Positions 27,275 to 56,180 of a DNA stretch of 64,000 nucleotides are shown piece after piece (position 1 is the stretch's first letter; every line of letters starts with the position of its first letter). The translations under genes were made by a program, and so were the position numbers. The DNA lies in the NCBI GenBank assembly GCA_951406725.2, contig OX597824.1, positions 86,490,001 to 86,554,000 of the forward strand, in the 5' to 3' direction. The notes beneath the pieces were generated by a model. That model worked only from the letters and a program-made list of their open reading frames with translations. It was not told the DNA's origin and ran no database searches. The stretch comes from Octopus vulgaris. Its lineage: Eukaryota.

Positions 27275-27720
27275 TACTTCTGTTGTGTCTGGGGAGAGTC
27301 ATTTTCTTTTTTTGCCTTATAATGTAACACACGCACCGGTAAAATTTCCACTTATTTTTATTTTCCTAAAATTTTCGTTGCATCTTGCAACCTTTTCAAT
27401 AAGGCACAAAAAGAAAATTACTCTCCCCAGACACAACAGAATATGCTTCAACACACGAACTCATATAAAGAATCTTGCAAACCAAATCCAAAAACGAAAT
27501 ATTTTTACTTCGCCAACTCGAAGCAAGTTGGTAATGTCATGTAGCGAATTTCCATTTGTAGACAACACGTAAATGCAAGTGTCGATTAAATAAATCATTT
27601 AAACCACAATCCGATGCTTTCCCATTGTCTAACTTTGATGTCCACATGCCTATTTCATCTGCTACGTCAACATCTTTTCCTACACATCCCGCTACACTGT
27701 GTTCTATAATACAACGGCCA
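27275..27720. mobile_element. Penelope-like remnant with inverted pseudo-LTR arrangement
   Basis: 27277-27320 is inverted relative to 27400-27440. It shares sequence with 14635-14752, 14290-14350 and with 45630-45747, which follows a GIY-YIG ORF. Confidence 0.6.
27365..27404 (-). ncRNA. Second copy of the U3:A8 hammerhead-like motif in a Penelope pseudo-LTR
   Basis: The - strand reads CCT(T)A-TTGAAAA-G-GTTGC-aagat-GCAAC-GAAA-AT-T-T-TAGG. Confidence 0.55.
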
Positions 27721-29117
27721 CTTGTTTTCTTTTTTTTTTCTTTACTACCCACGAGGAGCTAAACACTAAGAGGACAAACAAGGACAGACAAACGGATTAA
27801 GTCGATTATATCGACCCCAGTGCGTAACTGGTACTTATTTAATCGACCCCGAAAGGATGAAAGGCAAAGTCGACCTCGGCGGAATTTGAACTCGGAACGT
27901 AACGGCAGACGAAAAACCGCTAAGCATTTCGCCCGGCGTGCTAACGTTGCTGCCGGCTCGCCACCTTTCAACGTCCACTTTTAAGTGGGAATAAATATTG
28001 TCTTTTGGTATTAATACTGTTTCTCTTTCTCTCTAGTTTCAGCTCAGAGCTGCGACGATGCTGATGCACCGCCGTTTTGCTACACTGTTATTACTAAGAG
28101 CCTCCTCTGTCGCTAATAATTATTTTTAAAGATTACTGTTTTAAAGTAATATGGAAAAAATTTTAGGGTGCTATTGCATACTTGATTTTATAAATTATTT
28201 TTGTGTATAACAAAATTATGAACGATTCGATTTTCTAGATGCACTGGCATAAATAGGGATTTTTAAGTCTTAAATTATATTTTAAAATATCCGCGGTGCA
28301 TACGGACATCCTTTACATTGAGAGGCCCTCTTCGATGACAACAGTTCTAAAACTTTGTGCGTGTATATTATTTGTAGTTTGTAACATGTTTGTTGTTTAA
28401 TTTCTTGCATTTCGGCAATTTCAACCAATCAATGACGTCTATTGAGGTGAATTCAATTTCTCCGTTAACATTTTCTGGCGGCGTCATGTGAAAATGTCCC
28501 TGTTACATATTATATATTCGTTTCAGAAACAGATTGGGTTTATTTACATTTCTGCAGAAAAAAAGATACCCTTCCCCCCACCCCCTAACGTTAATTTAAA
28601 CTCTAACTCTAACCCTAAAACAGATTGAAATGCAATAGATCGATATTAGGGTCATAATTATGGGTGGACACTAAAGAGGGAACGGTTTTGTTATCCAGTT
28701 CTATTTACGAGTGACCCCTCAGTTTATGGCCACAGGGTATCTTTTTTCTCATAAAAAACATGGACATTTTCAAATGACGCCGCCAGAAAATGTTTACGGA
28801 GAAACTGAATTCACCTCAATAGACATCATTGATTGGCTGAAATTGCCGAAATGCAAGAAATTAAACAACAAATATGTTACAAACTACAGAATTTTCTCAA
28901 GAAAGCCAAGAGAAAAAGAGGTTTTATAAACACATTCGATCAGTATACGAAATTTAAAATTTTTTAGTTACATGGAAATTATTTTAAAAATCTGCCGGTC
29001 AAAGTGAAAAGATCCCTCGATTATTTGCGGCAAGCAGTTATAGAATTAGAAATAATATATCACATTTTTAAAATATATATATTTTTAATAATGAATGAAA
29101 TAAAATGCAAAACTTAC

Positions 29118-29272
29118 TGAACGTAACATTTTGAACATCTGAGACTTGTGCACATCTTAAATAATCCTATTTTTCTACCATATTGCGTCAACCAGCCAAC
29201 TGTAGCTAAGGCAATAACATCAGCCACGAACCCGACGACCTGCACACCGTAGGCAATTTGAAGCATATCCAT
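29118..29272 (-). CDS. PMP22/EMP/claudin-family tetraspan protein, coding exon 1
   Basis: Acceptor cag at 29280-78 and ATG at 29272. Translation MDMLQIAYGVQVVGFVADVIALATVGWLTQYGRKIGLFKMCTSLRCSKCYV gives TM1 plus a W-GLF-C-C signature (claudin W-GLW-C-C like). Consensus donor GTAAGT starts at 29117. Confidence 0.8.
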
Positions 29273-29405
29273 TCTCGCTGTTAAATGAAATGAAGAGCAC
29301 AACTGTGAAAACTGTGTACCAACCTCTCCTTAAATACGGTCCTATTTAATGCTGTTCAAATATCGGATATCCGGCACATTAGAAATATTTTTGAAGGAAA
29401 TCAAG

Positions 29406-29436
<31 letters not shown>

Positions 29437-29666
29437 TACCATCATCATCATCATCATCATCGTCATCACAACCACCATCACTACCATCATCATCATTGCT
29501 GTTAGTATTTGGATTACAATTATTTCGAAGAATCTTATCACACAATTTGGATATACAGTAATAACTCGCTTTACGAGACCCCGAATTTTACAAGTTTTAT
29601 TTTTCAAACACAAGATCCAAATTTTGAACGAAGTGCAAAATTTTCTACTACCATAACAAATGCTTC

Positions 29667-30017
29667 GGATCTTTACCTTTCGACCGACAGATTTTTTAAA
29701 TAATTTTTTGTAACTAAACACTTTCAAACTTCGGACACTGGTAGAACGTGTCATACAAAACATCTTTTACTCTTAGCGTTTTTGAGAAAAGCTTATATTT
29801 AGGAAGGTATTTCACGTTAAAGTTCTCGTATTTCGGTAATTTCAACCAATCAATGACGTGTATTCAGCTGAATAAAATTACTGCCGTTGATTCTTTTTCT
29901 CAAAAGTTTTTCTCAAAAGTGCTAAGAGTAAAACATGTTTTATATGACACCATTCTACCAGTGTCCGAAGTTTGAAAGTGTTTAGTTACAAAAAATTATT
30001 TTTTAAATCTGTCGGTC
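29667..30017. mobile_element. Foldback MITE with about 110-bp inverted arms, related to the 2168-2584 family
   Basis: GACCGACAGATTT..CTCTTAGC is inverted against GCTAAGAG..AAATCTGTCGGTC; the right end is cut by (TTA)n. Confidence 0.75.
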
Positions 30018-30018
30018 A

Positions 30019-30092
<74 letters not shown>

Positions 30093-30113
30093 TATACACT
30101 CAACAGATTAGAC

Positions 30114-33100
30114 CAGTGTTTCCCAAACTTTTCGCGTCGAATTGCAATATCGCTCACCTATCAGCCAAAATATGCTCCATCGCTCACCTGTGTAAAAAAA
30201 AAAAACCTGACACAACTCCAACACAAAATCCCCTAGGACCCCTCTGTATCATTTGACGCACACACTATATCGTAGATTTGTTGCCCTGTTAGTGCGGTTT
30301 GGACTAAATATGCGGGGTTTTTTTACAAATCCCTTATTAGTGTGAATAAAATTCTAACGTTAACTCTATATTTTTCAGACAGATTAACTTCTGGAAACTT
30401 GCGCTTTCTTTTACACTGATTTTCATTTTCCCCAAATGAATCATTGATCAGAACTACCGATGCAGAAATAATTAATGATTGTATCATAAAGAAAAAGAAT
30501 AAAACTTTTTAATGAGAACCATGAGTCTGGTGCGATACATTCGGTTTCAAACTTGTCAACTTTAGACGCCAGTCTTCTCATTGTGTCACATCCAGTCCAA
30601 TTCTATTCTGGGAAAGTAAAGTTCCAATATGCCTAAAACTAGATTCAACCAGGTGCGAAGTAGGGAAGGCAAGCAAAAGTAATTTCAGATGTTACCGCTG
30701 ATTGAGGTAGGAATTCAATCTACTTTGATGCTGCTACAAACCTTTGCTATAATGGCGATATCGCATTGTGGCTTCATTGTCATTTTGTAATGCTATCAAT
30801 TCCTCCTGAACGTCTTCCTTACAATCGACTGCATTAACCTTAAACGGATTGCTATACCAATTTGAAATATTCGGCGCAATAACATCTTGAAATCGCTCCA
30901 CCATGTCATCGTGCAATGATTGTAAATAGCTGCGATAAGTATGAAATTTGTAGAAAAGAAAAAAGTTTGCTAATGTTTTATAAATACAAAGAATAATTTT
31001 ATTCATCAAAGTATGCACCCATATTGTCAATACACTTATGCCATTTCAGCGGTAGCTTGTCCTGCCGGGAACTGAAAAAAAGCCTGGCAATCTAGAGTCA
31101 ATAAAATCTTGGAAGGCCTGTTTTATAGCATCGTCGGAATTAATTTTTTTCCCATCAAAAAGTTATCCAAATTCTGAAAGAAGTGTTAGTCAGTGGGGGC
31201 AAGATCAGGTGAGTATGATGGATGATGGAGAACTTCCAACTCCAATTCCTGTAGTTTCGCCAATGTCATTTTTGCGATGTGTGGTCTAGCGTTGTCTTGC
31301 AATAAAATAGGAGTGGGTCTGTTGACTAATCTAGGCTGTTTTTCCTTGTAAGTTTCTGCATCATTTGGTCCAGTTGGCTGCAGTATACTTCGGCCGTGAC
31401 TGATGAGCTAGGTTTAATGAAATCATAATGGATCACACCTGCGCCAGACCACCAAACACACACCATCAGCTTCTTTTGATGAATTTAGCTTTTTGGACTG
31501 TGTTTTGGTGGCTCGTCTTTGTTCAACCATTGTGCTGACGTTTACAATTGTTGTGTTGGATCAAATTCTCATCACATGTTACAATTCGATTCGAAAACGA
31601 TTCAATTTTATGACGAGAAAGTAGCATAATGCAGGCTTCCAAACGTTGCTGTTTCTGATTTTCATTGAATTCATGTGGAACCCACTTATCCAACTTTTTC
31701 ACTTTGCCGATTTGAACTAGGAGAGTCAATATTGTTTGCATGCTAACACCAAACAACAACGATAACTCACAGGCACTTTGAAATGGATCTGACTCAACGG
31801 TGGCTTTCATTTCGTCATTATCCACCTTTGTTTCTGGTCGACCGCGTTGCTCATTTGTGAGGTCAAAGTGACCAGAACGAAATTTTACAAAACAATTTGA
31901 TACTGTCGGCTGTGTAGTAACATTAGAATGAAATGCTCCATTAATATTCCGAGCTGTCTGTGATGCTGTATTACCAAGAAACTGTACGAATTTCCGAATT
32001 ATCCATCTCTAAACAAAAATAGCAAAAAAACGATTTATAAATACTTTTTAAAGCGCAAAATGAGTTAGAATAAAGAAATAGATGTGTCAGCTTTCTAACA
32101 AAAAATAAAGATTGTCAAAATATAATAACGGTGTAAAATGAACAGCTGTCAAGGTTTACCATATACCTTACTACAAATTTCATACTTGACGACCTAATAG
32201 TTAAATCTTCATCAACCAATTATTCATCTTTTAAAGAATCAAGTTGTGGAAATTGATGGAATTGTCGTTTTGAAATGTTAGTCTTAAACAACACAATTTT
32301 GAAATGAAATTAGTGATTTATAATCAACGAGTTTTTTCTGTTTCCTTGCAATAACTTATTCAAATCATTTAATTTTGTGAATATATCACAAAGAAAAAAT
32401 GCAGCCATTAATGAAGCGGATATTGGATTAGCTTCAAAGAAAAAGATATTGTATAAAACAGTTCAACAAAGCGTTTTTTGTTAGCCACCGCACTTTGGTA
32501 TAGTCCTCGTCATTTCTCAGACAGAGTTGATGGAACATTCGATCAGACAAGGGACTGGACTTAAATTTGTTCACAGTCTTGTAGCGCATCATTCAATCTG
32601 CTCTTTCACTCTTTACTCTTTTACTTGTTTCAGTCATTTGACTGCAGCCATGCTGGAGCACCACCTTTAGTCGAGCAAATCGACCCCGGGACTTATTCTC
32701 TGTAAGCCCAGTACTTATTCTATCGGTCTCTTTTACCGAACCGCTAAGTGACGGGGACATAAACACACCAGCATCGGTTGTCAAGCAATGCTAGGGGGAC
32801 AATCACAGACACACAAACATACACACAAACATACACACACATATATATATATATATACATATATACGACGGGCTTCTTTCAGTTTCCGTCCACCAAATCC
32901 ACTCACAAGGCTTTGGTCGGCCCGAAGCTATAGTAGAAGACACTTGCCCAAGATGCCACGCAGTGGGACTGAACCCGGAACCATGTGGTTGGTAAACAAG
33001 CTACTTACCACACAGCCACTCCTGCTGTTCATATTTTTACAACTAAATGCTGCCGGTGTGGCAAGCAATGAAAAGTTAGTATCGGGTGGGATGTTTCACG

Positions 33101-34925
33101 CTTTAGGAGAGATGAAAAACCTCTGTATCTTCCTATCATCGAAGGAGCTCCATCAGGCGTACAGGCAAGAATATTACTGAGCGGGGTATTATGTTCAAGA
33201 AGGAAAGTCTTGAGAATGTGAAAACTAGTTATGCAGAAATGTAAATAAACCCAATCTGTTTCTTAAACGAATATGTAATATGTAACAGGGACATTTTCAT
33301 TTGACGCCGCCAGAAAATGTTAACGGAGAAATTGAATTCACCTCAATAGACGTCATTGAGTGGTTGAAATTGCCGAAATGCAAGAAATTAAACAACAAAC
33401 ATGTTACAAACTACAGAATTTTCTCAAGAAAGCCAAGAGAAAAGGAGGTTTTATAAACACATTCGATCAGAATCTACCTTCCTTAATCAAGTGGCAATTT
33501 CTCTGTGAACAGCATTTCCTCACAAGTTTGAAGGTCTTCGCTGAAATACCGAACATATACCATCATCAAACATTGATTGTCCACAACAGTTGACTCATCC
33601 ACTTGTATAGAAAATTCACAACGCTGGTGAATATTAATGAGCTGATGTTTGACATCGGTGGCCATTTCATCGATGCGTCGAGAAATTGTGTTATTACTAA
33701 GTGGGATCTTCTTCATAATATTATCGGGCTTTTCATGCATAACGGTTGACAAAACCTCTTCGCTAACTGGGCGAAGTAATGTTTCTCCAATTGTTTGAGA
33801 CTTCCCAGACTTAGTAACAAGCAATGCAATGTTATACGATGCAATCAACCCCTCATTCTCCTGTTTACTAGTTTCCTGGAGTAGCATGTTGAATGTTTGT
33901 ATTTGCTTTTTGAAAGAGAAGCTCAGTTGCAAAAAGTATGATAACGGCTTGTCCTTCTTGCCAGAATGCTTTGCTTCAAAATGATACTTCAAGTGTGAAG
34001 GTTTTATTGTTTCGTTGGTCAATGTTTGATGGCAAAGAAGGCACATTGGTAACTGACAGTTCTGAGGAGAAGGGATAAATGCAAACGATAAATAATCACT
34101 ACTGTACTGTAGACAAATTCGCTTGACTGGATGCATCGGTAAAGTGAAAATGTGAAAACGAATTTCTACAGACAGCGTCATAAAGGCAGTATGATATTCC
34201 CAAAGCGAAGAAGTCAACAGAGCAGAGTCAGATGACGCGTCTTTGCTGGAGCAAATACGGATCTAGTTCGTTTGGCTGCCAGTATTTCAAAAATTAAAGT
34301 TTATCGAAAATTTTAGAATTTGGCACATTAATGTGCCTTTCCAAGCTAAATTACTAAAGTTATTCAACTTTTTCCAGAAAAATGTTTTTAATAAGTTATA
34401 GAGGTTTAAATTTTGATCATTTTCACCCAGTCAAGAAACACGATTTCAAAGCTGTCATTTTGTGCGTGACTGTACATTTTGTCAACATCCTGAAAACAGC
34501 ACTTGTGCTTTGATATGAAACCATTTTTCGGAGTTTTCAGAAAATTTTCGCAAATTTGAATTCTATGCGCATGATTTCATACGATTATGTATATAAAAAA
34601 AAACATTTGTGATGGAGTGTGATTTAAGACCTAGGCCTATTTGGCTGCTAATTTTATCACGCGCCACAACTATCTCAATGACTGCGACAAAAATATTCGA
34701 TCGATAAGCAAGTTCGCTTGTTTAATACAAATAGTCAAATCAATAAAAGTGCATTCTTATTCTAGGCATGCCTAGATATAAGTAAATGGAGACTTAATTT
34801 CTAGAAATTCATTGTCACTCGCAAAATGTTCATATCGTCCACCAAAATCTCAAATCGCCCACCGTTTTCTAGAATTTTGCCCATCCCCCACCGGTGGGCG
34901 ATATCGCCTACTTTGGGAAGCTATG
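30114..34925 (-). mobile_element. Buster/Charlie-type hAT transposon with nested insertions
   Basis: Termini CAGTGTTTCCCAAA / TTTGGGAAGCTATG; 8-bp TSD GATTAGAC (30106-13, 34926-33; nnnTAnnn). Transposase remnants: BED finger and FSIQVDEST (33483-34217) and dimerisation motif LLAFPTSHLVESSF (about 30630-30690). Confidence 0.92.
30937..32199 (-). mobile_element. Mariner transposon nested in the hAT
   Basis: WVPHE, RIVTCDE, LLQDNARPH, HPSYSPDLAPTD; TIR remnants AAGTATGAAATTTGTAG / CTACAAATTTCATACTTGACGACCTAATA. Confidence 0.88.
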
Positions 34926-34933
34926 GATTAGAC

Positions 34934-36440
34934 TGTTGGAAAAGAATCCCAACATCGGGCTACAACAAGTAGCCTTAGATGCCAAAAACCCGCCCAAGTA
35001 TCTTAGCTGTCCCTAATAACACTGTCTTCTGCAGTTGTACTAAATTTGGTTTTATGCCTATTCCCTCTATCCATCTGTTCAGATCTTTAGGGATTGTACC
35101 CAATGCACCTATAACTACTGGGATACATTTTTACCTGCATTTTTCATAGTCTCTGTAATTCAATAGCTAGGTCCTGGTACTTTGATATTTTTTCTATACT
35201 TCCCATATTAATTTTTTCATCATTTGGGACTGTGAAGTCAACTATCTGGCATCTTCTATTCTCTTTATCTACTACTACTAAACCAGGCCTTCTAGCTTCT
35301 ATTACTCTGTCAGTCTGAATGTTAAAGTCCCACAGTATCTCGTATTTCTTACTTTCTAGTACTTTACTAGGTTCCTGTTCATACCATTTATCAGTATATT
35401 CAAATCCTAGCTTTCTACAAAGCTCCCAGTACATTGCTCTCCCTAGACTGCCATGTCTTTTCTTGTATTCATTCTGTACCATCATGCTACATTTACTTAC
35501 TATATGAGTAACGCTTTCCTCTTTTGATTTGCATAATCTACATTGGGAATCTACTTGGTTTTTATATATCTTCGCTTTTATCCAATTAGTCCTTAATGCT
35601 TGATCTTGTACTGCTACTAACAAACTTTCTGTCTCCCTCTTCAGCTTTCCCTTCTGCAGACATAACCATGTCTCACTACTACTATTTGCTGAAACTATCT
35701 TTGGGAATCTACCATGCAACACCTTCTCCTGCCAGTCAGATAATTTCTGTTCTTTTTTCTGGTTTTTGAGTTAGTTTGGTGTTTTGGTTTACCTATGTCT
35801 TGCTCTGACTCTATCAGTTTTTAATAAACTTTCTTCACTATTACCACCTACATAGTAGCCTATATCTACTCCAGCTAACTCCATGCAGTCTTCCACTGAT
35901 ATTAACCCTCTTCTACCTTCCTTTCTAGATAGGTACAATATTGCTACTCCTGCTCTTGGGTGGAGTCCTCCATTCATATTGAACTCCTTCCTAGTTCTTC
36001 TGTCTAGTTTTGCTGATTCAGTTTTTGTCCAATCTACAAAAGCTGCCGGGTATCTAAGTAATGATACTACCCAAGTATTTACAGCCTTCACTAGATTCAG
36101 ACCGTTTAGCTTTGATTTCATTACCTTCCTCGTCCTTCTGATGTACTCCTGAATTTTCGCTTTCATTTCTGTAATTAGTACCTTGTCAAATTCTAATACT
36201 CCTAGATACTTATAACTTTCTCCTCCTTTCAATGATTTTAAATATCTGGCCATCTGGTAATTGGATGCCTTCACTGTTGACTACCTGTCCCCTTCTCATG
36301 ACCAATATCACACACTTATCTATGCCAAATTCCATGCCCATATCTTTGCTAGAGAGTCCTACAGTCTGTATTAAGGAACCTATCTCTTTTCATTCTTACT
36401 AAAAAGCTTCAGGTCATCCATGTAAAGCAAAGAATAGTTA
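34934..36440 (-). mobile_element. Degenerate R4/Dong LINE (RT end plus REL endonuclease)
   Basis: YMDDLKL, YKYLGV, CRLCKSKEESVTHIVSKC, ILWDFNIQTDRVIEARRPG. Confidence 0.9.
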
Positions 36441-37029
36441 CATTTTCTCCCTCAGTTACAGCCTCAGGGTGGTGCTTGTACCATTTGTCAGCAGTTTTGA
36501 TTTTTTAATGCCGACGCATTATCGAATGTAGATATTGGCCAACTTTGTCATGTACTTGATTTGTACTCTACAGGTGCTAAAACCTTACATCCGGAGATTA
36601 GATGGTCGACTATTTCTATACCATCGTTGCAGTATGGATCTTCACCGTTTTTCATCACATTGGCTTGATAGTTCCGGGTCAGTAAGCTCTGATCTTGAGC
36701 AACCAAGATAAAACCGTCACTCTCTGCCTTTAGCCATGAGCTCCGTAGCCACTGATGGCTACTGGTCAGCAACACCAAACATCTGCAGGTATTCAACGAT
36801 TCAAGAACGTGGTACCGTATCATATGCCTTCTTAAAGTCAATCCAAGCCATAGACATATTTATATGATGCTTTTCACAATGCCTCAAAACTGTTTTATCG
36901 ACGACCAGATGACCCTTGTTACCCTGAGAACTCTTCCTACAGCCCTTTTTGTCCACTTGGTACTATTTCTTCCTGTGCCAGGAAAGTGTATGTCTTTGCC
37001 GCACAAATTCCAATGAGTATCTTCCAAAT
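36441..37029 (-). mobile_element. Rearranged R4/Dong fragments
   Basis: WIDFKKAYDTVP (RT) is joined to HQWLRSSWLKAESDGFILVAQDQ, similar to the 37270 element. Confidence 0.75.
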
Positions 37030-37031
37030 TA

Positions 37032-37102
<71 letters not shown>

Positions 37103-37104
<2 letters not shown>

Positions 37105-38558
37105 TTTTTTTTTCTTCTTTCAAATTTGCTTCCATTTCTTGCCGAGTGTCTTCCCGACTCCTAGGGCAAAGAAACTCATAGTATACATTGGTAGGCCATT
37201 AAACCAAACTCAGTAGTTCGTTCTTTTTTTTTTTTAAGTTAAATTAAAATACATGAGCAGCAACAGTTCTCACATCGACAATGCTCTTCTCAATACGTGT
37301 GATGTACCAGTTAAGACAATCTTTTGCACTTCTTGCAGGGATGGTAAGCCAGGGATCATTCTCATATAATTTTCGGTTCCCTTCTTGATCATTCCTAGTG
37401 CTCCTACGATCACTGGTATTGTAACCGCCTTGAGATGCCACATTTTCTCAATTTCAATGAGTAGGTCTTTATATTTTCTGAGCTTGTCAAACTCTTTCGC
37501 TGAGATATTATGATCACAGGGGATGCTCATGTCGATCAATAAGTAAACTTTATTGTTTTGGTCTTTCACAACAATATCTGGTTTATTGGCCTTGATGGTT
37601 CGGTCTGTATGTACTGGAAAGTCCCACAGAATGGTTACATTTTCTCCTTCAGTTACAGCCTCAGGGTGGTGATTATACCACTTGTCGGCAGTTTTGATAT
37701 TGTAATGACTTATTAGCCAGTGGAGATATTGGCCAACTCTGTCATGTCTTAATTTATACTCCACGGGTGCTAAGACTTTACATCCAGACATTAGGTGGTC
37801 CACTGTTTCAATCATGTCGTTGCAGAATCGGCATTTTGGGTCTGCTCCATTTTTCATCACATTGGCCTGGTAGTTCCGGGTTAATAGGCTTTGATCTTGA
37901 GCAGCCAGGATGAAACCTTCGCTCTCTGCTTTTAGCCCTGAGCTCCGTAGCCACTGATGGGTTTGCTTCTGGTCAACATCAGCTTGTTTGCTGCGGGTCA
38001 CATATTTGCCGTGCAGAGGTTTCTCCTCCCACCTATCAGCCAATTGCTCGTGCGCTTTTTTCATTGCCATCATTTTCACCTTCTTTGCAACAATAGTTGC
38101 CGTACTTCCCTCGAGTTGTTCAGTTTGGGTATCCTGCACGAGATCAATAGCAAATTTTTTGCTTTCCTTTATGATAGAATGAAGCTTCTTTCGTCTCTCG
38201 TGATTTTCCACGAGCTTTAGCATCCAGTCATTCGATATTTCGAGATATTTGGCCAGTCCAATTGTGGTTGTTTTGTAAGCTAGTTCAAATTGGATCAGGC
38301 CTCGACCTCCTTGGGCTCTGGGAAGGTAAAGGCGATCTACGTCTGCCTTTGGGTGGTGCATCCTATTACAACTCAGCAGCTTGCGTATTTTTCTATCTAT
38401 ATTCTTTACTTCACTCATATTCCAGTTCAACACATTGTAGCTATAAGTAACAACTGGAACTGCTAAGGAATTTATAGCTAACACCTTGTTACGTGCATTT
38501 AGTTCAGATTTCAGGACTGCACGAACTCTCCTATAACATTCCTTCCTGATTTTCTCTT

Positions 38559-38562
<4 letters not shown>
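37103..38562 (-). mobile_element. Young 5'-truncated R4/Dong LINE inserted in a (TAA)n tract
   Basis: Uninterrupted 430-aa ORF (37270-38562) with CRFC..HLMSGC, RHD, KPDIVV and EFDKLRKY; long (TAA)n tracts on both sides (about 37030-37102 and 38561-38622). Confidence 0.93.
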
Positions 38563-38624
<62 letters not shown>

Positions 38625-38639
38625 GAAAACTCAGAGCTT

Positions 38640-40870: not shown

Positions 40871-40889
40871 TCATAATCATCATTATTAC

Positions 40890-40923
<34 letters not shown>

Positions 40924-41233
40924 CTTCTTCTTCTTCTTCTTCTTCTTCTTCTTCTTCTTCTTCTTCTTCTTCTTCTTGTTGCTGCTGCTGTTGTTGTTAT
41001 TAAGGCGACGAGCTGGCAGAAACGTTAGCACGCCGGGCGAAATGCTTAGCGGCATTTCGTCTGCCGTTACGTTCTGAGTTCAAATTCCGCCGAGGTCAAC
41101 TTTGCCTTTCATCCTTGTCTGTCCTTGTTTGTCCTTTCTGTGTGTAGCCCTTTGTGGGTAGTAAAGAAATAAGTATTTCGTCTGCCGCTACGTTCTGAAT
41201 TCAATCCCCCACCACACACACACACACACACAC

Positions 41234-41834: not shown

Positions 41835-42508
41835 TGCCTTCCAGCCTCAACCCTTTCATTACTGTTTATATTTTGAAATGCTCTGTATTTCTTTCAATTA
41901 ATTTTAAATATTACAAAGAATTTAGTAAAATAACTTGGTTATCATTAAGCTGGTGTTAGGAACATAAATTGTGACGAAGGTTTGGTGGAAGATTTTAATT
42001 CAAAACTTTTGAAGACAAGACATTTGAACTACAGAGCCAGAGCCGGTTTCAGCCAGGTTGGTTTCGAAAGGGTTAAGGGGTCGATAAAAAAAGTACCAGT
42101 TGAGCAGTAATCTTGTGCTAAAATTTGAAACCATTCTTATTATTATTGACAGTGGTGGATTGACAGAGTCGTTAAAGCGGTATTTGTCACAGGATTTTGC
42201 ATCTTGTGTTCGAATATCGCCGAAGTCGACTTTGTTTCCAATCCCGACATGGTAAACAACATCATATCCATGAGTGGACAGCATTACTACTACGCCTCAC
42301 ACCTCTTCTGTTAAGAATCTGTTGCCGTGCCAAAGAATCTGTTGTCGTAAGAAAATAATAATTAGCCTCATTGTAAAGATTTTCGCGTAAATTTGTCCGT
42401 TCCACTCCTAGCGAAACATCTTTATCATGAGTCTTGTAAACATTTCCTCCTACTTGAAAATATCAGTCAATCCCTATCACATTCAGCAGATAGGTATGCA
42501 TGCATTCG

Positions 42509-42575
<67 letters not shown>

Positions 42576-42689
42576 CGTTCTGTGTGTGCGTGTATCTATG
42601 TGCAAACTGTTGTTGAACCGCTAAGTTACAGAGGTGTATACAAACAAGCGCTGGTTTTCAACCGGTGGGAACAAATGCACACACACACA

Positions 42690-44470: not shown

Positions 44471-44479
44471 TGGCCTGCG

Positions 44480-45747
44480 AAAAGATCATAAGAGCTACAC
44501 AGATCATGTACTTGGGCCACCTACCCTACCTGTTTGTGGTGCCAACAATGCTAACGACCACAAAATATCATATTTTCTTTCACAATTCCTACGACCCTTA
44601 ATAGAGATATCTGCAGATATATGTGATAATACTGAAGACCTCCTGATTAAGTGCCAAGAAGGAGCTTGCGCGACTATCCCAGGGTCATATATTGGCGAGA
44701 CTTAAAGGAGCATCAATGATAGGTTCAAAGAACACCTGGACAACTACATTGAGAAAAAAACGACGAGCTGGCAGACACTTTAGCGCGCCGGGCGAAAATG
44801 CTTAGCGGTATTTCGTCTGTCGTTATGTTCTGAGTTCAAATTCCGCCGAGGTCGACTTTGCCTTTCATCCTTTCGGGGTCGATAAATTAAGTACCAGTTA
44901 CGCACTGGGGTCGATATAATCGACTTAATCCCTTGGTCTGACCTTGTTTGTCCATTCTGTGTTTAGCCCCTTGTGGGCAATAAAGAAATAGGTATTTCGT
45001 CTGCCGCTACGTTCAGAGTTCAAAATCCGCCGAGGTCGACTTTGCCTTTCATCCTTTCGGGGTCGATAAATTAAGTATCAGTTACGCACTGGGGTCGATA
45101 TAATCGACTTAATCCGTTTGTCTGACCTTGTTTGTCCATTCTGTGTTTAGCCCCTTGTGGGTAGTAAAGAAATAGGTATTTCGTCTGCCGCTACGTTCAG
45201 AGTTCAAAATCCGCCGAGGTCGACTTTGCCTTTCATCCTTTCGGGGTCGATAAATAAAGTACCAGTTACACACTGGGGTCGATGTAATTGACTTAATCCC
45301 TTTGTCCTTGTTTGTTCCCTCTGTGTTTAGCCCCTTGTGGGCAATAAAGAAATATAAAACAAACTATATCTTCTATCAGCAAGCTGTAGACTGCCACAAT
45401 GGCTCCTTCGGACGACTTGGGTTAGACATCTTATCTACACATCCCACTGATGCAATGCTGAGACAAGTCACTGAAGCTGTCTGTAGACAAGAATACAAAC
45501 CCACCCTCAACCGTAAATCCGAATGGGGAGACAACACCCAGATTCTGCTTAGGATAACCATCCCTTTTCCCTCATTTACATGTAGAAATCCATACATACA
45601 TGTTGAGATGCTTAATACTGAAATATGAGAGTCAAGCCTATTGAAAATGTTGCAAGACGCAACGAAAAATTTAGGAAAATAAAAATATGAAATAAGTGGA
45701 AATTTTATCGGTGAATGTGTTACATTATAAGGCCCAAAAAGAAAATG
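44480..45747 (+). mobile_element. Penelope-like element remnant (GIY-YIG endonuclease plus pseudo-LTR), split by a SINE B trimer
   Basis: KCQEGAC..SYIGET..SINDRFKEH, then ..RQVTEAVCRQEYKPTLNRKSEWG, followed by the hammerhead-like motif. Confidence 0.8.
45637..45675 (+). ncRNA. Hammerhead-like motif with U3:A8 variant core, just 3' of a Penelope GIY-YIG ORF
   Basis: CCTA-TTGAAAA-T-GTTGC-aagac-GCAAC-GAAA-AATT-TAGG. Confidence 0.55.
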
Positions 45748-47315
45748 AGGATCTTTTCGGTTTGAACGGCAGTTTTTTCTAGCGGTGTCATATGAAATTG
45801 TCACCCATAATTATGACCCTAGTATCGATCTATTGCATTTCAATCTGTTTTAGGGTTAGGGTTAGGAGTGGCGGGAAGGGTATCTTTTTTTTCTTCACGA
45901 ATGTAAATAAACCTAATCTGTTTCTTAAACGAGGGACATATTCATACGGCACAGAATGTGTTCACCTCAATAGACGTCATTGGTTGGTTGAAATTGAAGA
46001 AACAAAAACAACAAATATCTTACAAACTATAGAATTTTCTCAATAAAGCCAAGAGAAAAAGATGTTTTATAAACACATTCTACCAGTATACGAAGTTTAA
46101 AAGTGTTTAGTTACGTGGAAATTATTTTTAAAAAACTGCCGGTCAAACCGAAAAGATTCCATTTCCTTTACTCGTTGGTTAGGGAATTGACTTCAGTGCG
46201 GTTTTGTGTTGAAGAACTCGGGATGAGCCATTGCACAGCTGTTGATTATAACATCTATGTGCAGAGGACTTGCTTCGTCATCCAATTCAAGTTTGTGCTA
46301 AAAATTAACAGCTAAATAACGGTTTTTGGATAAATCTTAAAAGTTGCTGCTATTGCATTAAATGCATATTAAATGCTTAAAACTACAAAAGACGTGTTGT
46401 TCACTCGTTTTCCGCGTGTAGAATATAAATATTGACAATATGTGCTATTTTCAGGATATTGGACGGCAAAACGTACAGTCACGCACAAGATGAAAAATGA
46501 TTTTTATGTGAAAATGATTAATCACACTTTAAACCTCTATAACTTTTTAAAAACATTTTTCTGGAAAAAGTGAAATAACTCCAGTAATTCAGCTTGGAAA
46601 ACTACCTTAATGTGCCAAATATTAAAATTTTCGATAAATTTCAATTTTTGAAATGCTGGCGACCAACCAGAAAAGATCCGCGCCGGGTCTTTCAGTCAGA
46701 TTGCAATATACAGTATCTTTAGCAATCAAAACCTCGTAAGTGAAATTTTGTAGACGGGAACTATAGAAAAAAATGTTCTTTTTCTTTTTTTCTTTTCGAA
46801 GAAGTAGTCCTTACTATTAAACCATAGATCCTGTTACTGGTTTAATACCTTCATTTAATCAATGAGAACCAATAGGGAACACCACGCTGTTGCAAATATT
46901 CGAGACATCTCCAGTCCAAAGGTTACATCCTTCCTACTAGGCACAAAGGCCTAGTACACAAACAGCATTAATTTTATCGATATCAAAAAGATAGACAACA
47001 ATTGCAGTGTGGAAGGTGTTTGTAAGCCATTTAAGAAACACACAAAAGCCGTTCGATTCACTTACAAACACCTTCCACGCTGCAATTGTTTTCGTTTCAG
47101 CACACGATCTCAGATCAAATCACTTGCTATGCAAGTACATCTCCGCAAAAAGATAGAAGTATATTGAAATATAAAGTTTGAAAATAATGTGTGTTTTTCT
47201 GACATTTTTACGTATTTATTTATTCTTCAGCAAATTGGCAAGTTTACTTTCTGTTAAACTTTAAAATGAATTTACTCCCACAGAAACATTTTAGACTTAG
47301 CTTTCATTTTCTCCG

Positions 47316-47507
47316 TACGTGACCGAAATTATGCCTACGTGAGATTTTACAGTTTACAAAATTAACCTACATCTAAAGATTAGATTATTTAAAATACGCA
47401 CACTATGTTTGCCATGTAAACAAATATACATAGATATTTCGGAATTTTATCGCGTTTGTGTTAGTTTAACAACTATATAAGAGGTTAACTCAAACAATTC
47501 GACAGTT
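47316..47507 (+). promoter_or_regulatory. Candidate core promoter of GPx
   Basis: TATATAA at 47474-80 with Inr-like ACAGTT at 47502-07 about 30 nt downstream. Upstream are GTAAACA (forkhead-type, 47416-22) and two TACGTG (47316-21, 47336-41). Confidence 0.4.
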
Positions 47508-47536
47508 GGCTGCAGTAGAGCCTGTCAGTCCAGTTT

Positions 47537-47599
47537 ATGGTAAAGGCACCGAGAAGTGGTGGAACTGAAAAGCTCTCGCACGTTTTTCGTCTTCGGAAG
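47537..47599 (+). CDS. Candidate first exon of GPx (in-frame N-terminal extension MVKAPRSGGTEKLSHVFRLRK)
   Basis: Non-repetitive segment ending in a strong donor AAG|GTATGT (47599/47600). It has 63 nt from ATG and splices in frame to 58721 (AAT AGA ACA ATG). The link to GPx is inferred. Confidence 0.5.
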
Positions 47600-49294
47600 G
47601 TATGTGTGTGTTTTCGGGACTTAAAATTACATCAATTACCTTATTATATCATAGATTACGTTTTTAATTGTCTTGTTTATTATCTATTGATAAACAAAGC
47701 AATGACCATTAAGCAGTGTCGAAGACGTTCGGTGCTATATATCTCCCTGATAAAATGTAATTATAGGGTACCATAAACAGTACCCTTTCAAGTAGTCGGA
47801 CCCTACTTCCTAGCAATTACTTACATTTTTCATTTCTTCTGAACGAAATATGTGAGGTGAAAATCTTAAAAATCTTTAAAAGAATGTGAACTGTACTTCA
47901 TATAAATTTTAGAGGGCCGTTGCTTTTCTTTTTACTTACTCGCATGTATACATTTATCAAACATATGATTTTGAAGTGCCTTCGATTAAAGGAAATTTAC
48001 CGAAATTCCCCCCCCCCCCTACAACACACAACTTGTGGTGGAGGTAAAGAATTCGTACACCACCCGTTTTCGGCGGTTAGGGTCAAGTTTACGGTTAGGG
48101 TCACGCCGAAAACGGGTGGTGTGCGTATTCTTTACCTTCGCCCAATTTGTTACCATAATTTCGAAAAGCTTTCTGCGTGTTCTAAAATATATTGTAGAAT
48201 TTTCTCCTAAAGTATCTTCTTTTGACACTTTGAACTTGATTTACTTTAACCCATAGGCGCTGGGGGGTTGCACTTACATAGCATGGACTGCTAAGCACAT
48301 TTTATGAAAATGAGACCTCCATGCACACACACACAAAAATTAGTTAAAATATCTTCTTAGTATATAATGGTGGCAAGTTTTACATCATCTGAAAAGTCAG
48401 TTAAAATATTAGTCCTCTTGCTTTCTGGTGGGTATCGGAGCATTTGAGTCACATTAGACCCCAACAAATGCTCATAAATGCATCTATCTTGGCCACGATC
48501 GTAGCCTATCGACATGTGTCTGAACGGCCACGATCGTGGCCCGTCACGCTTTATGTGTTAAGCAGTGTTATAAATACTATAATCCCGTGTAATCGGTTTT
48601 GTTCGAAATACTTCACAAACACAGCTAAATTACTGAACCACATAGAAAATGAAAAAAAACCTTTCTTCTCTTTTTTTTCTCTCCTTTTTCTTTTTTCCAC
48701 CCTCCCCGCTTCGGTTTTTCTTTTGTAAGAACATATTACGGTAGAATCGTAACTAGGCACTATTGTTCAGGATTTGTATTTTAATGTGGTTTTGTATTAT
48801 ATATTATATACATGCGCTGTGCTCTTTTGTGGCATAACTACAGAATTGGGCCCCTTCTCCACTTTTGTTTCCACCCACAACTTTGTAAGAAAAATATACC
48901 TAATGATATATTCTAATGATAGTTTCCATAGGTGCATTTTAAATGATACAGATAAAAGTGATAAAATTTGTAAAAAAAAAAAAATTCTTTTTAATTGGGG
49001 GTGGGGGAAACGGGTATGTCCTGTCCCACCATCGACTTTCTTCAACTTTTTTAAAATACGTTTTTTTTTAATGAAATTTTCCGAAGATACTTTTTTGAGG
49101 GCGTAGATTACGATTATCCAGATATTATTTGTAACAAACAAACAAACAAAAAATAACAATAATAATCGTAATCTACACCGTCGAAAACTTAGCTCTCTGG
49201 AAAATTTCATGAAAAAGCATTTTTTTAAAGAAAGTAATGCATGCCGGGAGAGTGAGGAGAGAATTATCCGAAGCCCATCCAAAGAAATTCTTTT

Positions 49295-49715
49295 GGCGAT
49301 CTTTCTTCTCTAGTAGACCTTTCCGTCGATTTCCGTAAAAAACTTTTATTTTTTTACATATGGGCTTGCGGGAATTTTTGAAGTAATGAGAGCGAAAGAG
49401 ACTAAGAGAAAGCGATTGTATGACGAGGGAAGTTCTTTTGAAGTTACCGTGCATGGGACGCATTGATGTACATGTGTGTGTGTGTGTGTTTGATGGGGTG
49501 TGGGAGACAGACAGTATGTTGTGTAAGTGAAGTGCTTCTGTTAGTGTGTGTGAAGAGACAGAGTAATGTGTGAAAGAAAGAGATAACTGAAATTTTTTAC
49601 TCGGTGTATGTGTATATGTATGTATATTACTTCAAAAGCTCCCGCAAGCCCATATGTAAAAAAAAAAATTTTTACGGAAATCGACGGAAAGGTCTACTAG
49701 AGACGAAAGATCGCC
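49295..49715. mobile_element. MITE with about 90-bp TIRs and 8-bp TSD (Merlin-like)
   Basis: GGCGATCTTTC..CTAGTAGACCTTTCCGTCGATTTCCG / inverse; TSD ATTCTTTT at 49287-94 and 49716-23; GG termini. Confidence 0.85.
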
Positions 49716-50107
49716 ATTCTTTTCTTGCAACTTTGACATAATTGTTATCTACACACCTAAAATGTACTTTTTGAAAAATTGTTACAAAAACATGTTTTAA
49801 AGATTTTAAGAAAGTTAATAGGGAACCGAAGTCGTTGGCAGGGGTACTATATTTTTTTTTAGCGTGGCTGTGCGGTTGAAAAGCTTACTTCGCAACCGTG
49901 TGATCTTTGGTTTGGTCCCACTGCACGGCACCTTGGTCAAGTTTTTTCCGCCATAGCCTTGGGCCAGCCAAAGCTTTTATGAGTGAATTTAGTAGGTGAG
50001 ACCTGAAAGAAAAAAGAAACTTGTTGTGTGTGTAGTGAAATCGTCGTCGTGGCTGATCTTTAAATGCTGGGCCTCATGGAGGTGATGAAAAATGACCGAG
50101 ACCTTTG

Positions 50108-50936
50108 TGGAGGCACATGGCCTAGTGGTTAGAGCAGCGAACTCGCGGTTGAGGGATTGCGGGTTCGAATCTCAGACCGGACGAGCTGGCAGAAACATTA
50201 GCACGCCGGGCAGAATGCGTAGTCGTATTTCGTCTGCCATTACGTTCTGTGTTCAAATTCCGCCAAGGTCGACTTTGCCTTTCATCCTTTCGGGGTTGAT
50301 AAATTAAGTACCAGTTACACACTGGGGCCGATGTAATTGACTTAATCTGTTTGTGTGTCCTTGTTTGTCCCCTCTGTGTTAAGCCCCTTGTGTGTAATAA
50401 AGAAACAGATATGTGTGTTTACGAGCGAAACACCTAAGCTCCACTCGGCTCTGGCAGAAGGTAATGACGAACTTCTGCTGACTCTTTCGCCACAACATTC
50501 TCTCACTCTTCCCTCCTGCATCTTGCAGCTCACCTGCGACGGACCGGTGTCCCATCCAGGTGGGGAACCTATATGCCAAGGAAACCGGGAAACCAGCCCT
50601 TAAGAGCCAGGCGTGGCTTGAGAAGGAACAACATGGCCTAGTGGTTAGAGCAGCGGACTCATGGTTGAGGGATTGCGGGTTCAAATCTCAGACCGGATGA
50701 TGTGTGTGTTTATGAGCGAAACACCTAAGCTCCACTCGGCTCCGGCAGAAGGTAATGGCAAACTTCTGCTGACTCTTTCGCCACGACTTTCTCTCACTCT
50801 TTCCTCCTGCATCTTGCAGCTCACCTGCAACGGACTGGCATCCCGTCCAGGTGGGGAAACCTATATGCCAAGGAAACCAGGAAACCGGCCTTTATGAGCC
50901 AGGCATTGCTCGAGAAGGAACAAACAAAAAACAAAA
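50108..50936 (+). mobile_element. Tandem dimer of SINE family C' with a SINE B inside the first unit
   Basis: Two units with heads ATGGCCTAGTGGTTAGAGCAGCG (about 50117 and 50633) inside one 13-bp direct repeat ACCGAGACCTTTG (50095-107, 50937-49). Confidence 0.8.
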
Positions 50937-51547
50937 ACCGAGACCTTTGGCAATATGCTGTGCTTGAGTAGAAGACTTGTGGTGTATGCAAGAGATTCGA
51001 AATAAAGGCACCTACCTTCTCTTCGCTCAGATGGAGACCCTTCAGCGGTAATGGATCCTTCAACACAGCCCGACCCGAACGCTAGAGATAGCAGCTGCTT
51101 CCCCCAACCTTAACGTGATGACCCGTCTTACCCGCTCAGCAACCTGACTCGAAAGGACAGAATCCTGCCCTCGCTGCACGCGCATCACCGCTGTCCCTTC
51201 CGGTCAGCCCCAAGTTCCGGTCAGCTCCCCAGCTGCTGATGTCATCCCACAAGACTCATCAAGCCAAGTGAAATTGTAGTCGTGGCTGTTGCTGGTGTCA
51301 TATAAATGGCACCTAAAGAGTTCCTGTTACACTCTTGGAGTCGTTGGAGTAAGGAAGAGCATCCAGCTGTAGAAACCATGCCAAATCAAACTGGAACATG
51401 GGGTAGCTCTCCAGCTTACCAGTTCCGATCAAACCGTCCAATTCTTGCCAGCATGGAAATCAGACATTAAGTGGTGATAATGATGATGATGGGTGTTTGT
51501 GTTTGCCTGCCCACCTCCACTGCTTGATAGCTGATGTTGGTTTGTTT

Positions 51548-51930
51548 ATGTCCCCCAAGTTGTGGCAACATGACCGGGCAGTGAAAGTGCTACACTGGAA
51601 ACTTTGCAGAACGTTGGAGCTAGAGAGAGGCAAGATATGGTATAAGCACAAACTGCAAAGAGTGGCAGAGTCGGAGACTAACAAAATCCTCTGGGATTTT
51701 CCCAATCCAAATAGATGAGATGCTAGAGCATAACAGACCACACCTAGCAGTGGTGGACAAGGTGCACCACATGTGCTATATAGTTGAAACTGCATGCTCC
51801 TTTGACCCATGAGTAGTCAAGAAGGAAGGCAAAAAGATAGACAGATAAATACAACCCAGCCCGACTATGGAAAATGAAGAAGGTGAAGATAATGCCAGTT
51901 ATTGTTTGATCCTTGAGAACAGTATCAGAA
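51548..51930 (+). mobile_element. R4/Dong LINE endonuclease fragment
   Basis: HDRAVKVLHWKLC..KILWDF..HNRPHL. Confidence 0.7.
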
Positions 51931-53473
51931 GGCAACTTCTTACCACAAAACTAGAGCTGCATTTATAGCCAGTTATAATTAATAAAGCTTATAAACACAG
52001 CAGTTGTTACGTGTCTATATTTCACTACCCTCCCCCAAGGCTTAAATAAACAAAACTATCATGAGCTTACATGCTTTCTTATTTCTTTATTGCCCACAAT
52101 AGAGGGGACAAACAAGTACAGACAAACGGATTAAGTTGATTACATCGACCCCAGTGCGTAACTGGTACTTAATTTATCGACCCCGAAAGGATGTAAGGCA
52201 AAGTCGACCTCGGCGGAATTTGAACTCAGGACGTAGCGGCAGACAGGCTTACATGCTTTCTTATTTCTTTACTACCCACAAGGGGCTAAACATAGAGGGG
52301 ACAAACAAGGACAGACAAATGGATTAAGTTGATTACATCGACCCCAGTGTGTAACTAGTACTTAATTTATCGACCCTGAAAGGATGAAAGGCAAAGTCGA
52401 CCTCGGCGGAATTTGAACTCAGAACGTAGCGGCAGACAAAATACCTATTTCTTTACTACCCACAAGGGGTTGAACATAGAGGGGACAAACAAGGACAGAC
52501 AAACGGATTAAGTTGATTACATCGACCCCAGTGCGTAACTGGAACTTAATTTATCAACCCCGAATGGATGAAAGGCAAAGTCGACCTCGGCAAAATTTGA
52601 GCTCAGAACGTAACGGCAGACGAAATACGGCTACGCATTTTCGCCCACTGTGCTAACGTTTCTGCCAGCTTGCCGCCTTAATCTACTATGGAGATTTATC
52701 AGTAAAAATATTATTTGTAAACAAAATTTTTTTTTTTTAAATTCCAACCCATTGAAAAAGTATAGATTGGTGTAGAAAAAGATATTTTGGAGACAACATA
52801 AACTTGTTTTGGAAAAAGCAAATGAAATATAGACAAGGTGTGTTTACATCCCCGTCACTTAGCGGTTCGGCAAAAGAGACCGATAGAATAAGTACTGGGC
52901 TTACAAAGAATAAGTCCTGGGGTCGAGTTGCTCGATTAAAGGCGGTGCTCCAGCATGGCCGCAATCAAATGACTGAAACAAGTAAAAGAGTAAAGCAAGA
53001 ATCAGTAAGAATGTTTGTAGGTGTTATCAATTATGAAATCATCATTATTTAGTGTCTGTTTTTCATGCTGGCATGGGTTGGACAGTTTGACAGTAACTGG
53101 CAAGACAGAGAGCCACACCAGGTGACATTGTTTTGGTATGGTTGCCCTTCTTAATGCCAACCAGTTTAGAGTGAACTGGGTACTTTTTATGTGGCACCAG
53201 CACAGCATGGCACCACCACTTCCCAAATATAAGAATAATTTTTTTTTCTTATCCATTGTTTTTTTGTAATAAATAAATTAAATAGAAAAGTTCTAATTAA
53301 TTTGAGAATTTATATATCATTGCTATTTTAACATCTACTTTTCCATGCTTTCTTTGAAACTGGCACAGCATTGGTTACAAGGGTTCCAGTTGATGTAATC
53401 AGTGGAACACCCTGCTCATGAAATTAACGTGCAAGTGGCTGATCACTCCACAGACACACATACCCTTAACATA

Positions 53474-53999
53474 CCATAAATCCTCAAGTATAGTCCACCC
53501 TTGAGTATAATATGCAGGGGATTTTAAGAGGAGGTGTACCTCTGGAAAACCTAAACCTTGTGTATAATATGCACCCCTTCTCTAACTTGAGTCATGCATA
53601 ATTAAGCCAGCAGCACCGAGTCGACCAAACACTTCCGCGCATGCGTAATACAATAATAGTGATGTTCTTAACTGTTATATGGGAATGTAAATATGTTTGC
53701 AAATTATTTTTGTTTCATGTTATTCTGTGTTCTGAATACTTTTATTTTAATAAATGTTGCTTACTGCAAGTTATGGATGATTCTTTTATGACTTCATTGC
53801 TTTCAGGCTTAGCTTAAGGTATTTTCACGCCCGACATCACAAAATGCGTCTAAATAAAAACATTGCCAGACAGCAAATAGAGACTCGGACATTGCTTAGA
53901 AAATATTTTTCATTTTTAACCTCATATATAGTATGCACTAGGGATTTTGACCTTTAAATTTTGGAGAAAAAAGTGCGGATTATACTCGAGGATTTACGG
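53474..53999. mobile_element. pogo/Tigger-like MITE inserted in an older SINE
   Basis: TIRs CCATAAATCCTCAAGTATAGTCC / GGATTATACTCGAGGATTTACGG; TA on both sides. Confidence 0.8.
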
Positions 54000-55839
54000 T
54001 AGTTCTCAGGAAGATTCAGTATGACAGAGAATGTAATAGGGCTGGCCCTTTGAAATACAGGTACTACTCATTTATGTTTAGTGAGTCAACTGAAGCAATA
54101 TGAAATAAAGTGTCTTGCTCAAGGACATGGTGCGCTGCTGAGAATCAAACTCACAACCTAACAATCGTGAACTGAATGCCCTAACCACTAAGCTATGTGC
54201 TTTCACTTTCCATTGATAAAGTAGATATCAAAATGTCCAGAATGTTTGTTGTTCAAATAGACCAGGATATTATTTCCCTGCTTGGAAACAAGTTGGGGAG
54301 GAGGTCATGTCAGGAAGGGCAGCATCCAGTCAGAAAACTCTGCCCCATGCAGGCAGCCATTTGATTCTATAATACTTGGAATCATTTGTCCTCATCCCTC
54401 ACTTGTTTATTACCGACCCTCTAATTTATATTTCATGAAAAGAAATGAGGTTTCAAATATATCTTTAAAATAGGAAACGAAATCTTTGTTAAATACTCCC
54501 TCTCTCTACCGAATGTGTGGTGCTTTTTCTGTGGCACCGGCACTTCCCAAATATAAGAATGAATCTTTATTATCTGTTTATTAACATATAGGCGCAGGAG
54601 TGGCTGTGTGGTAAGTACCTTGCTAACCAACCACATGGTTCCAGGTTCAGTCCCACTGCGTGGCACCTTGGGCAAGTGTCTTCTACTATAGCCTCGGGCC
54701 GACCAAAACCTTGTGAGTGGATTTGGTAGACGGAAACTGAAAGAAGCCCATCGTATATATGTATATTTGTGTGTGCATGTATGTTTGTGTTTGTCCCCCA
54801 ACATCGCTTGACAACCAATGCTGGTGTGTTTACGTCCCCGTCACTTAGCGGTTCGGCAAAAGAGACCGATAGAATAAGTACTGGGCTTACGAAGAATAAG
54901 TCCTGGGGGTCAACTAAAGGCGGTGCTCCAGCATGGCCACAGTCAAATGACTGAAACAAGTAAAAGAGTAAAGAGAGTATATACAACAGGCTTCTTTCAG
55001 TTTCCGTCTGCCAAATCCACTCACAAGGCTTTGGTTGGCCCAAGGTTATAATAGAAGACACCTACCCAAAGGTGCCACACAGGCTATAGTGAAGGCACTT
55101 GCATAAGCTACTGCACAGCGGGACTGAACCTGAAACCACATGGTTGGGAAGTGAACTTCTAAACCACACAATCATGCCTGCACCTATATAATTTTTTTCA
55201 AAACACTCACTTTTTCACAAAGGAAGGAGTGTCTTGAAATGGGGTTAGGTTGGCTTCTTACGTCATTTGAGGGGTTCAGTTTATTTGTAAAAGACACTTG
55301 AACAGGAAATTCTAGTGAGGTGCAGTCTTATTAAGTGTTGGTGTAAATGTGAGATATAAGATTGTTTGTTTACATTACATTCTTCTCTTTGTCTATTTAT
55401 TAATATGTAATTCAAAAATTCCCAAAATATGAACATTCCCATTTGTATTACTATCTATGCCAAAATTATTTTGCAGCATGGAAGTGTGTATGTCTTGCAA
55501 ACAACTTGCACATGCAAGTGCTACCAGTTAAAAGCTCCGTATACCGGAAGCTAGCAAGTGTATGGGGTCATCAGGAGAGAATGCGCGCCGTTTCGGGGCC
55601 TACCTCTCGACAGCATCAATGCGCACCAGCCCCACTTACTAATATGAGGCCCCGCTTGCTAGATCAGCTGGTTATGAAGAACTCAATATACTTCTAGCCA
55701 CTGCTCATCGTCTCTTTTTAACCAAATCCAGTGGCTAGCCTTCTCCACTGTAGATTGGATATCAGTCATGGTGGTATTGACTTTACAATGAGTTAAGCCT
55801 ATCAATAACAACAGTCGTCTCACGCTGTGTCCAACAAAC

Positions 55840-56180
55840 CCTCTACATTTAAAAACATAAAAACCATTAGATTCTCTTCAACATTTAAATTTAATTTGTC
55901 AAAATATTTTCATCGCTTTGAAGCTGCAACCTGTTCACTGGCAAAATTCCTGCATGGCACCTTGGGCAGGTGTCTTTTATTACAACCTCAGGCCAAACAA
56001 AATTTATCATTGAACACGTCGCTGTTTCAAAGCTTTGACAAATTAAATTTAAATGTTGAAGTGAATCTAACGGTTTTTGTGTGTTTTTAAATGGCTTATA
56101 AACACCTTCCACACTGCAATTGTTTTTGTTTCAGCACACAATCTCAGATCAAGTCACTTGCTATGCAAGTACATCTCCGT
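55840..56180. mobile_element. Inverted pseudo-LTR-like repeat pair (second Penelope-like family)
   Basis: 55850-55950 is inverted against 56000-56090; it shares sequence with 46998-47145 and carries the G3:C8 hammerhead-like motif. Confidence 0.55.
55896..55944 (-). ncRNA. Hammerhead-like motif with G3:C8 variant core
   Basis: The - strand reads TTGCCA-GTGAACA-G-GTTGC-agcttcaaa-GCGAT-GAAA-ATAT-T-T-TGACAA, the same architecture as the U3:A8 motifs. Confidence 0.5.

Follow-up and report, generated by a model that had tools for sequence, protein, structure and literature searches.

The window analyzed here is a stretch of 64,000 nucleotides from Octopus vulgaris (assembly GCA_951406725.2, contig OX597824.1, positions 86,490,001 to 86,554,000 of the forward strand), in which an earlier note had recognized hammerhead ribozyme motifs with unusual pairs between core positions 3 and 8 in two repeat families. 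We confirmed the core sites as UUGAAAA at 27399-93 (-) and 45641-47 (+), GUGAACA at 55938-32 (-) and CUGACGA at 17451 (+). The motifs at 27399, 45641 and 55938 are built alike, with one extra nucleotide, a 5-bp stem II, GAAA, a stem III of A and U, a U at position 17 and a closing stem I, each of these lying where it had been reported. The stem III strands are AAUU at 27399, AAAU at 45641 and AAUAUU at 55938, the first and last being palindromic and AAAU not. The motifs at 27399 and 45641 belong to one family (family A) and that at 55938 to a second (family B). All three are decayed pieces of pseudo-long terminal repeats (pLTRs). The Penelope-like retrotransposons from which they come form two sister families, so that the two repeat families of the earlier note stand, as sisters of one lineage. 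The reading that we favor, with a probability of about 0.7, is that they are decayed minimal type I hammerheads, U3:A8 in family A and G3:C8 in family B, of a kind that likely cuts slowly and likely needs a second copy or an element protein to do so. The copies in the window are themselves probably inactive.

The family A hammerhead at 27365..27404 (-) has its U3:A8 core at 27399-27393, an extra G, a stem II of GUUGC/GCAAC and the AAUU stem III, with the cut predicted between 27369 and 27368. It lies at the end of a pLTR arm (27278..27401, -) that matches the long family A copy L253 at 86% in blastn, is 5'-truncated at the hammerhead and carries no tail. The adjoining inverted family A arm (27398..27501, +) carries the optional tail with the beginning of the element's open reading frame (ORF), xTLPRHNRICFNTRTHIKNLANQIQKRN, which is homologous to the N-terminus of an intact sister ORF. 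At 27399, the junction with this inverted arm supplies the outer part of the 5' strand of stem I, family A sequence alone providing only 3 bp. The second family A motif sits in a solo pLTR (45627..45748, +; core UUGAAAA at 45641-47) inside the 3' untranslated region (UTR) of a family B fragment that encodes part of a GIY-YIG endonuclease (44642..45625, +) in two pieces, 44642-44760 and 45356-45625, separated by a 184-bp tandem repeat. This fragment was ruled out as the coding region of the 45641 motif, since the fragment is family B and the motif is family A; the motif is a later insertion into it.

The family B hammerhead (55895..55945, -) has a G3:C8 core at 55938-55932, an extra G, a stem II and the AAUAUU stem III, and its predicted cut falls between 55902 and 55901. 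The surrounding pLTR arm (55846..55953, -) matches the long family B copy L181 at 91.5% in blastn. An inverted family B arm with tail follows at 56004..56185 (+), with a remnant core, UUGAACA, at 56010 and an internal deletion; the 55954-56003 segment separating the two arms resembles a short interspersed nuclear element, a likeness judged by eye. The window holds another truncated family A copy at 14632-14753 (-) and an inverted family B pair without a hammerhead core at 46994-47163.

Decay is evident in the copies of the window. At 45641 the extra base is altered and stem III has lost its palindrome; at 55938 stem I has a mismatch and stem II contains G·U pairs, and the sequence folds more poorly than its shuffles (z +1.6). 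In the well-kept family B copy L148, stems I and II form on folding (z -3.05), and well-kept B copies have a 7-bp stem I and a 5-bp stem II in their minimum-energy structure. When the 27.4-kb and 55.9-kb insertions were folded entire, they gave long arm-to-arm hairpins without the hammerhead fold. An Rfam scan of the window at E<=5 returned no hammerhead match, just microsatellite noise.

To count the cores across the genome (2.8 Gb), we used the shared pattern with any nucleotide allowed at positions 3, 7 and 8, and the same pattern reversed as the control. The pattern had 10,845 exact matches and the reversed control had 0. The 3:8 pair was G:C in 6,087 matches, U:A in 3,659, U·G in 138, C:G in 17 and A:U in 7. 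The seven A3:U8 matches resemble double decay; the remaining 937 are not fully split and, as judged from 100 listed of the 502 rows whose position 8 is G or U, mostly resemble single decay. The 3:8 complementarity that the earlier note had described holds at the family level, as U:A in one family and G:C in the other. A structure-aware scan of loci enriched in these families (1.01 Mb) found 92 matches, and none when that DNA was reversed. For family B, we also drew a sample independent of the motif, anchored 3' of the cut (100 taken of 9,185 matches, with 93 distinct arms retained); both halves of the motif were present in 71 arms, 68 of which had G3:C8. Contigs of four runs from four organisms span the B core with no alternative letter above 5 in 100 at position 3 or 8, a weak result given that reads must be 80% alike. 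The earlier note had taken three pair variants in one window, the third being the C:G motif at 17451, as an argument for selected structure. The variants are real, but their co-occurrence is no more than a by-product of high copy number; moreover, the 17451 motif, although truly C3:G8, comes from an unrelated family with a loop II of ~90 nt.

Both families are parts of coding Penelope-like elements (PLEs). Long family B copies contain a reverse transcriptase (RT), a C-x3-C-x2-C linker and a GIY-YIG domain ~1 kb upstream of the motif, and a B hammerhead lay within 1.5 kb in 12 of the 29 loci retrieved with B endonuclease (EN) DNA, which confirms the Penelope RT/GIY-YIG link suspected for the 55.9-kb family. 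The link holds for family A as well, with a hammerhead 286-1,085 nt downstream in 23 of the 30 loci retrieved with the A endonuclease. The core pairs behind those 23 endonucleases were U:A in 21 (one read by eye), A·A in one and C·A in one, and the 12 long family B copies had six G:C, five G·G and one G·U. The family A copy L224 retains an open RT-EN frame of 665 aa with YVDD and YIGETSR. In family B the coding frames are broken in L181-L187, with Pfam GIY-YIG at 22.7 bits (cut-off, 22.6) and RVT_1 below its cut-off. An RT-EN linker of the form CX2-5CxxC is present in both (CTNDNCMVC in A and CQNNCAVC in B), and the proteins of the two families are ~47-63% identical depending on the segment.

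Copies of both families are 5'-truncated and frequently inverted head to head, one arm bearing the optional tail that encodes the ORF start, and the 3' UTRs of the elements are 0.3-1.3 kb long and microsatellite-rich. In the account of EN+ PLEs of the Neptune/Nematis type given by Craig et al. (2021, PMC8557442), as far as that paper was covered, the RT, the CX2-5CxxC linker, the C-terminal GIY-YIG domain, 5' truncation, inverted copies, the optional tail and TA microsatellite flanks are shared with families A and B; the likeness is one of motifs, our tree having no named references, and the long microsatellite-rich 3' UTRs are a difference. Non-LTR retrozymes were ruled out as the identity of the window copies: these derive from coding elements, as solo or inverted pLTRs, and are not short non-coding head-to-tail units. 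The inverted pLTR of family B also occurs in tandem arrays with a unit of ~2.2 kb (G000:C2:206158697-206186232; also C3:26.6 Mb and C1:156.9 Mb). We rejected these arrays as coding elements, as they have no PLE coding match.

Much of the architecture of these motifs has precedent. Small dimer-dependent hammerhead variants with a short stem III and an association with PLEs were reportedly described by Lunse, Weinberg and Breaker in 2017. Cervera and de la Pena (2014, PMC4209133), in the parts covered, describe minimal PLE hammerheads with an extra nucleotide, a palindromic stem III, weak cleavage as dimers and a U3-A8 variant, and these resemble the hammerheads of families A and B in their pLTR location, the extra nucleotide between 9 and 10.1, G10.1-C11.1, the short palindromic stem III and the presence of thousands of mostly solo copies. 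Their U3-A8 variant had ~1,300 matches in Schistosoma, and the cores in Fig. S3 include UUGAAAA, UUGAUAA and the U·G core UUGAAGA; the Fig. S3 examples are without G3:C8, and the parts of the paper covered here contain no cephalopod and no A9C family. Natural covariation of C3:G8 to U3:A8 is also noted by Perreault et al. (2011, PMC3088659), whose section on core variation names U3:A8 alone.

For the G:C pair, laboratory precedents exist in the parts of two papers that we covered. In the hammerhead of the Anolis PAc (Poseidon) element, likewise a Penelope hammerhead, the C3G/G8C double change partly rescues cleavage, the element protein is needed, and the hammerhead is dispensable for insertion in vitro (PMC11167929). 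PAc further shares with the present families a tail that is the stretch between two RT start sites and uncut RNA as the main template; it differs in that G3:C8 was engineered there and is the natural family state in B, and it belongs to a different PLE clade (PMC11167929). In a full double-mutant scan of one hammerhead motif, the G:C swap was the only rescue (PMC9901934). Whether the variants were new had been left undecided in the earlier note. U3:A8, the extra nucleotide and the palindromic stem III turn out to be published already, whereas a natural G3:C8 hammerhead was not found in the literature searched, the coverage of which did not extend to Lunse 2017, Przybilski and Hammann 2007, Nelson and Uhlenbeck 2008 or Martick and Scott 2006. 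The G:C half is a new natural variant within the literature searched, with laboratory precedent for partial activity; the family B hammerhead is probably a weak cutter.

A protein tree, calculated from an alignment of 20 rows anchored on family A and without named reference elements, had the topology (B,(G,(A,A2))), with bootstrap values of 100 for B, for A+A2+G and for the whole clade, 82 for A+A2 and 81 for A2. Family G is the youngest sister family, with near-identical copies and intact ORFs of ~1,310 aa in tandems (L506-L509; G000:C17:6329500-6338000 and others). We found 31 metagenome relatives, with DNA behind the ORF in 15 and a hammerhead in 4, all four of them C3:G8. Because the tree has C3:G8 outgroups, we infer by parsimony that C3:G8 was ancestral and that U:A and G:C were separate changes from C:G. 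Family A would have reached U:A via a U·G step that persists in subfamily A2, and family B would have reached G:C separately, via two transversions.

Families A, B and G have no alignable 3' DNA except the microsatellite and the ORF-start tail. Nevertheless, U4, G5, A6, G12, A13, A14, A15.1 and U16.1 are unchanged across the three, and stems I and II change in compensatory pairs among A, A3, B, E and G (GUUGC/GCAAC, GUCGC/GCGAC, GUCAC/GUGAC). In every sequence feature the hammerheads of A and B fit the minimal type I pattern of PLEs, with the type I core order (tallied position by position in the 71 B arms), G10.1-C11.1, the extra nucleotide after A9 and a short palindromic stem III of the sort that would permit dimers. 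It is these kept core residues and swapped stem pairs amid unalignable flanks, more than the 3:8 count, that argue for selection on the fold, and such selection would have acted on master elements, not on inserted copies. Compensation at 3:8 within a family was not seen (C3 in 7 of 49 G8 rows vs 4 of 49 A8 rows).

The ends of inserted copies bear on whether the element RNA is cut. In family B, 72 of the 93 arms extend through the entire core, which shows that uncut templates were commonly copied; inactivity of the motif does not follow, as cutting by a lone minimal hammerhead is not to be expected. The 5' ends of the family B arms (L312-L401) cluster 51-66 nt upstream of the predicted cut in 47 of 93 cases, some being limited by short reference sequences, and six of the 93 arms are copies of one composite repeat. 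The cluster site has the look of a transcription initiator and also of a 3' splice site, and a G often precedes it. An extra G was present at the 5' end in 20 of 39 B and A copies, a count confounded by microhomology with the inverted arm; this G could be a copied cap. We propose that, in RNA read through a tandem element, the palindromic stem III strands (AAUU or AAUAUU) of two pLTRs would pair, and that cutting after U17 would follow. Most reverse transcription would start at the tail sites on RNA that is still uncut, leaving short, often inverted solo pLTRs like those in the window.

Several observations count against the favored reading and against any strict constraint on catalysis. The 3:8 covariation goes back to no more than about three independent double changes, and U:A takes just two transitions. 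The young family G, although C3:G8, has replaced the A9 that is normally invariant by C in 96 of the 100 matches listed of 3,325. Mismatched cores have also been amplified: subfamily A2 has 41 U·G and 7 C:G among 49 G8 rows (100 listed of 110 matches), most cores of the old family E are U·G, and family B includes 79 matches with G·G, 32 of them on contig C16, besides the five among its 12 long copies. Just 1 of 93 family B arms and 1 of 32 family G arms begin at the predicted cut, the single B arm doing so via stem I microhomology, and stem III strands taken by themselves are predicted to lack stability (self-duplex energies of -0.2 to +2.2 kcal/mol). Three double changes would give R-scape little power and cannot carry a strong claim of covariation, the telling change being that to G:C, with its two transversions; selection on the 3:8 pair looks real but is not strict. 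Many of the G·G copies on C16 (G000:C16:1.3-11.5 Mb and 42-56 Mb) are long and have inverted partners with the same mismatch; they may have spread by retrotransposition or by local duplication.

These observations would also be accommodated if the fold were retained for a non-catalytic job, such as binding of the RT or ORF protein, template switching or a promoter or splice context, with cleavage lost and the 3:8 complementarity reflecting structure only or partly drift. The A9C change in the youngest family, the amplified U·G and G·G subfamilies and the lack of a pile-up of 5' ends at the cut fit such a role, and in the parts of PMC11167929 covered, catalytic mutants insert normally in vitro and anole element RNA ending at the cut was unseen. 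We nevertheless consider loss of cleavage unlikely: G5, G12, A13, A14, A15.1:U16.1 and a non-G at 17 are fixed across families with unalignable flanks, the two transversions of family B arrive at the one swap known to rescue catalysis, and monomer cleavage is not expected of minimal hammerheads in the first place. The opposite possibility is that the motifs cleave efficiently and so define where the element RNA ends, as in circle formation; such a role was proposed in PMC4209133, in the parts covered, and would agree with the stems folded by the well-kept B copies. This possibility is very improbable given that the whole core is crossed in 72 of 93 B arms and one begins at the cut, and that published minimal hammerheads are poor cutters even as dimers (PMC4209133). 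A last alternative, that the window copies resemble these hammerheads by chance or are canonical C3:G8 motifs that decayed independently, could appeal to their decayed and AT-rich state, but it is refuted by the genome counts: U:A and G:C predominate across thousands of copies, whereas C:G accounts for 17 of 10,845 and the controls for 0.

We retain, as the likeliest reading, slow hammerheads that depend on a second copy or an element protein. More speculatively, and with less than even confidence, one Penelope lineage may have run through a succession of natural cores (C:G, U·G, U:A, G:C, G·G and A9C) while remaining highly mobile, its insertions recording that uncut RNA was copied from a constant start point a short way before the motif, and the ribozyme being tuned down or gated by protein. 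If that were true, the lineage would allow the role of Penelope hammerheads to be probed family by family; in any case, sister families with differing cores are material for asking whether these hammerheads must cut. A natural high-copy G3:C8 hammerhead, if true, would be an evolutionary confirmation of a tertiary pair that has been reversed only in the laboratory in the literature searched. Descriptors of the CUGANGA type undercount ribozymes, here by ~10,000 exact copies in one genome. No new ribozyme class or host function is revealed by these families.

Two further hammerheads lie in the window. The one that contains the 17451 core (family C; 17447..17572, +) has a canonical C3:G8 pair, a loop II of ~90 nt and a palindromic stem III ACAGCUGU. 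Family C is unrelated to A and B; its unusually long loop II is preserved across 30 loci, and no RT/EN link was found in those 30 loci. The other (family F; 16371..16415, -), which the earlier note did not list, has a U3:A8 core, UUGAUAA, at 16411-16405, no extra nucleotide, a stem II of GGUUC/GAACC and a stem III of ACAUGU. Family F is young, with copies 97-99% alike and U3:A8 in 96 of the 100 matches listed of 685 exact ones. As a GIY-YIG-like frame was present in 6 of 50 loci, this family is probably a different Penelope lineage with a separate origin of U:A. Outside the repeats, an open frame at 59850-60200 (+) contains a WNFEKFL motif and reads like an exon of glutathione peroxidase.

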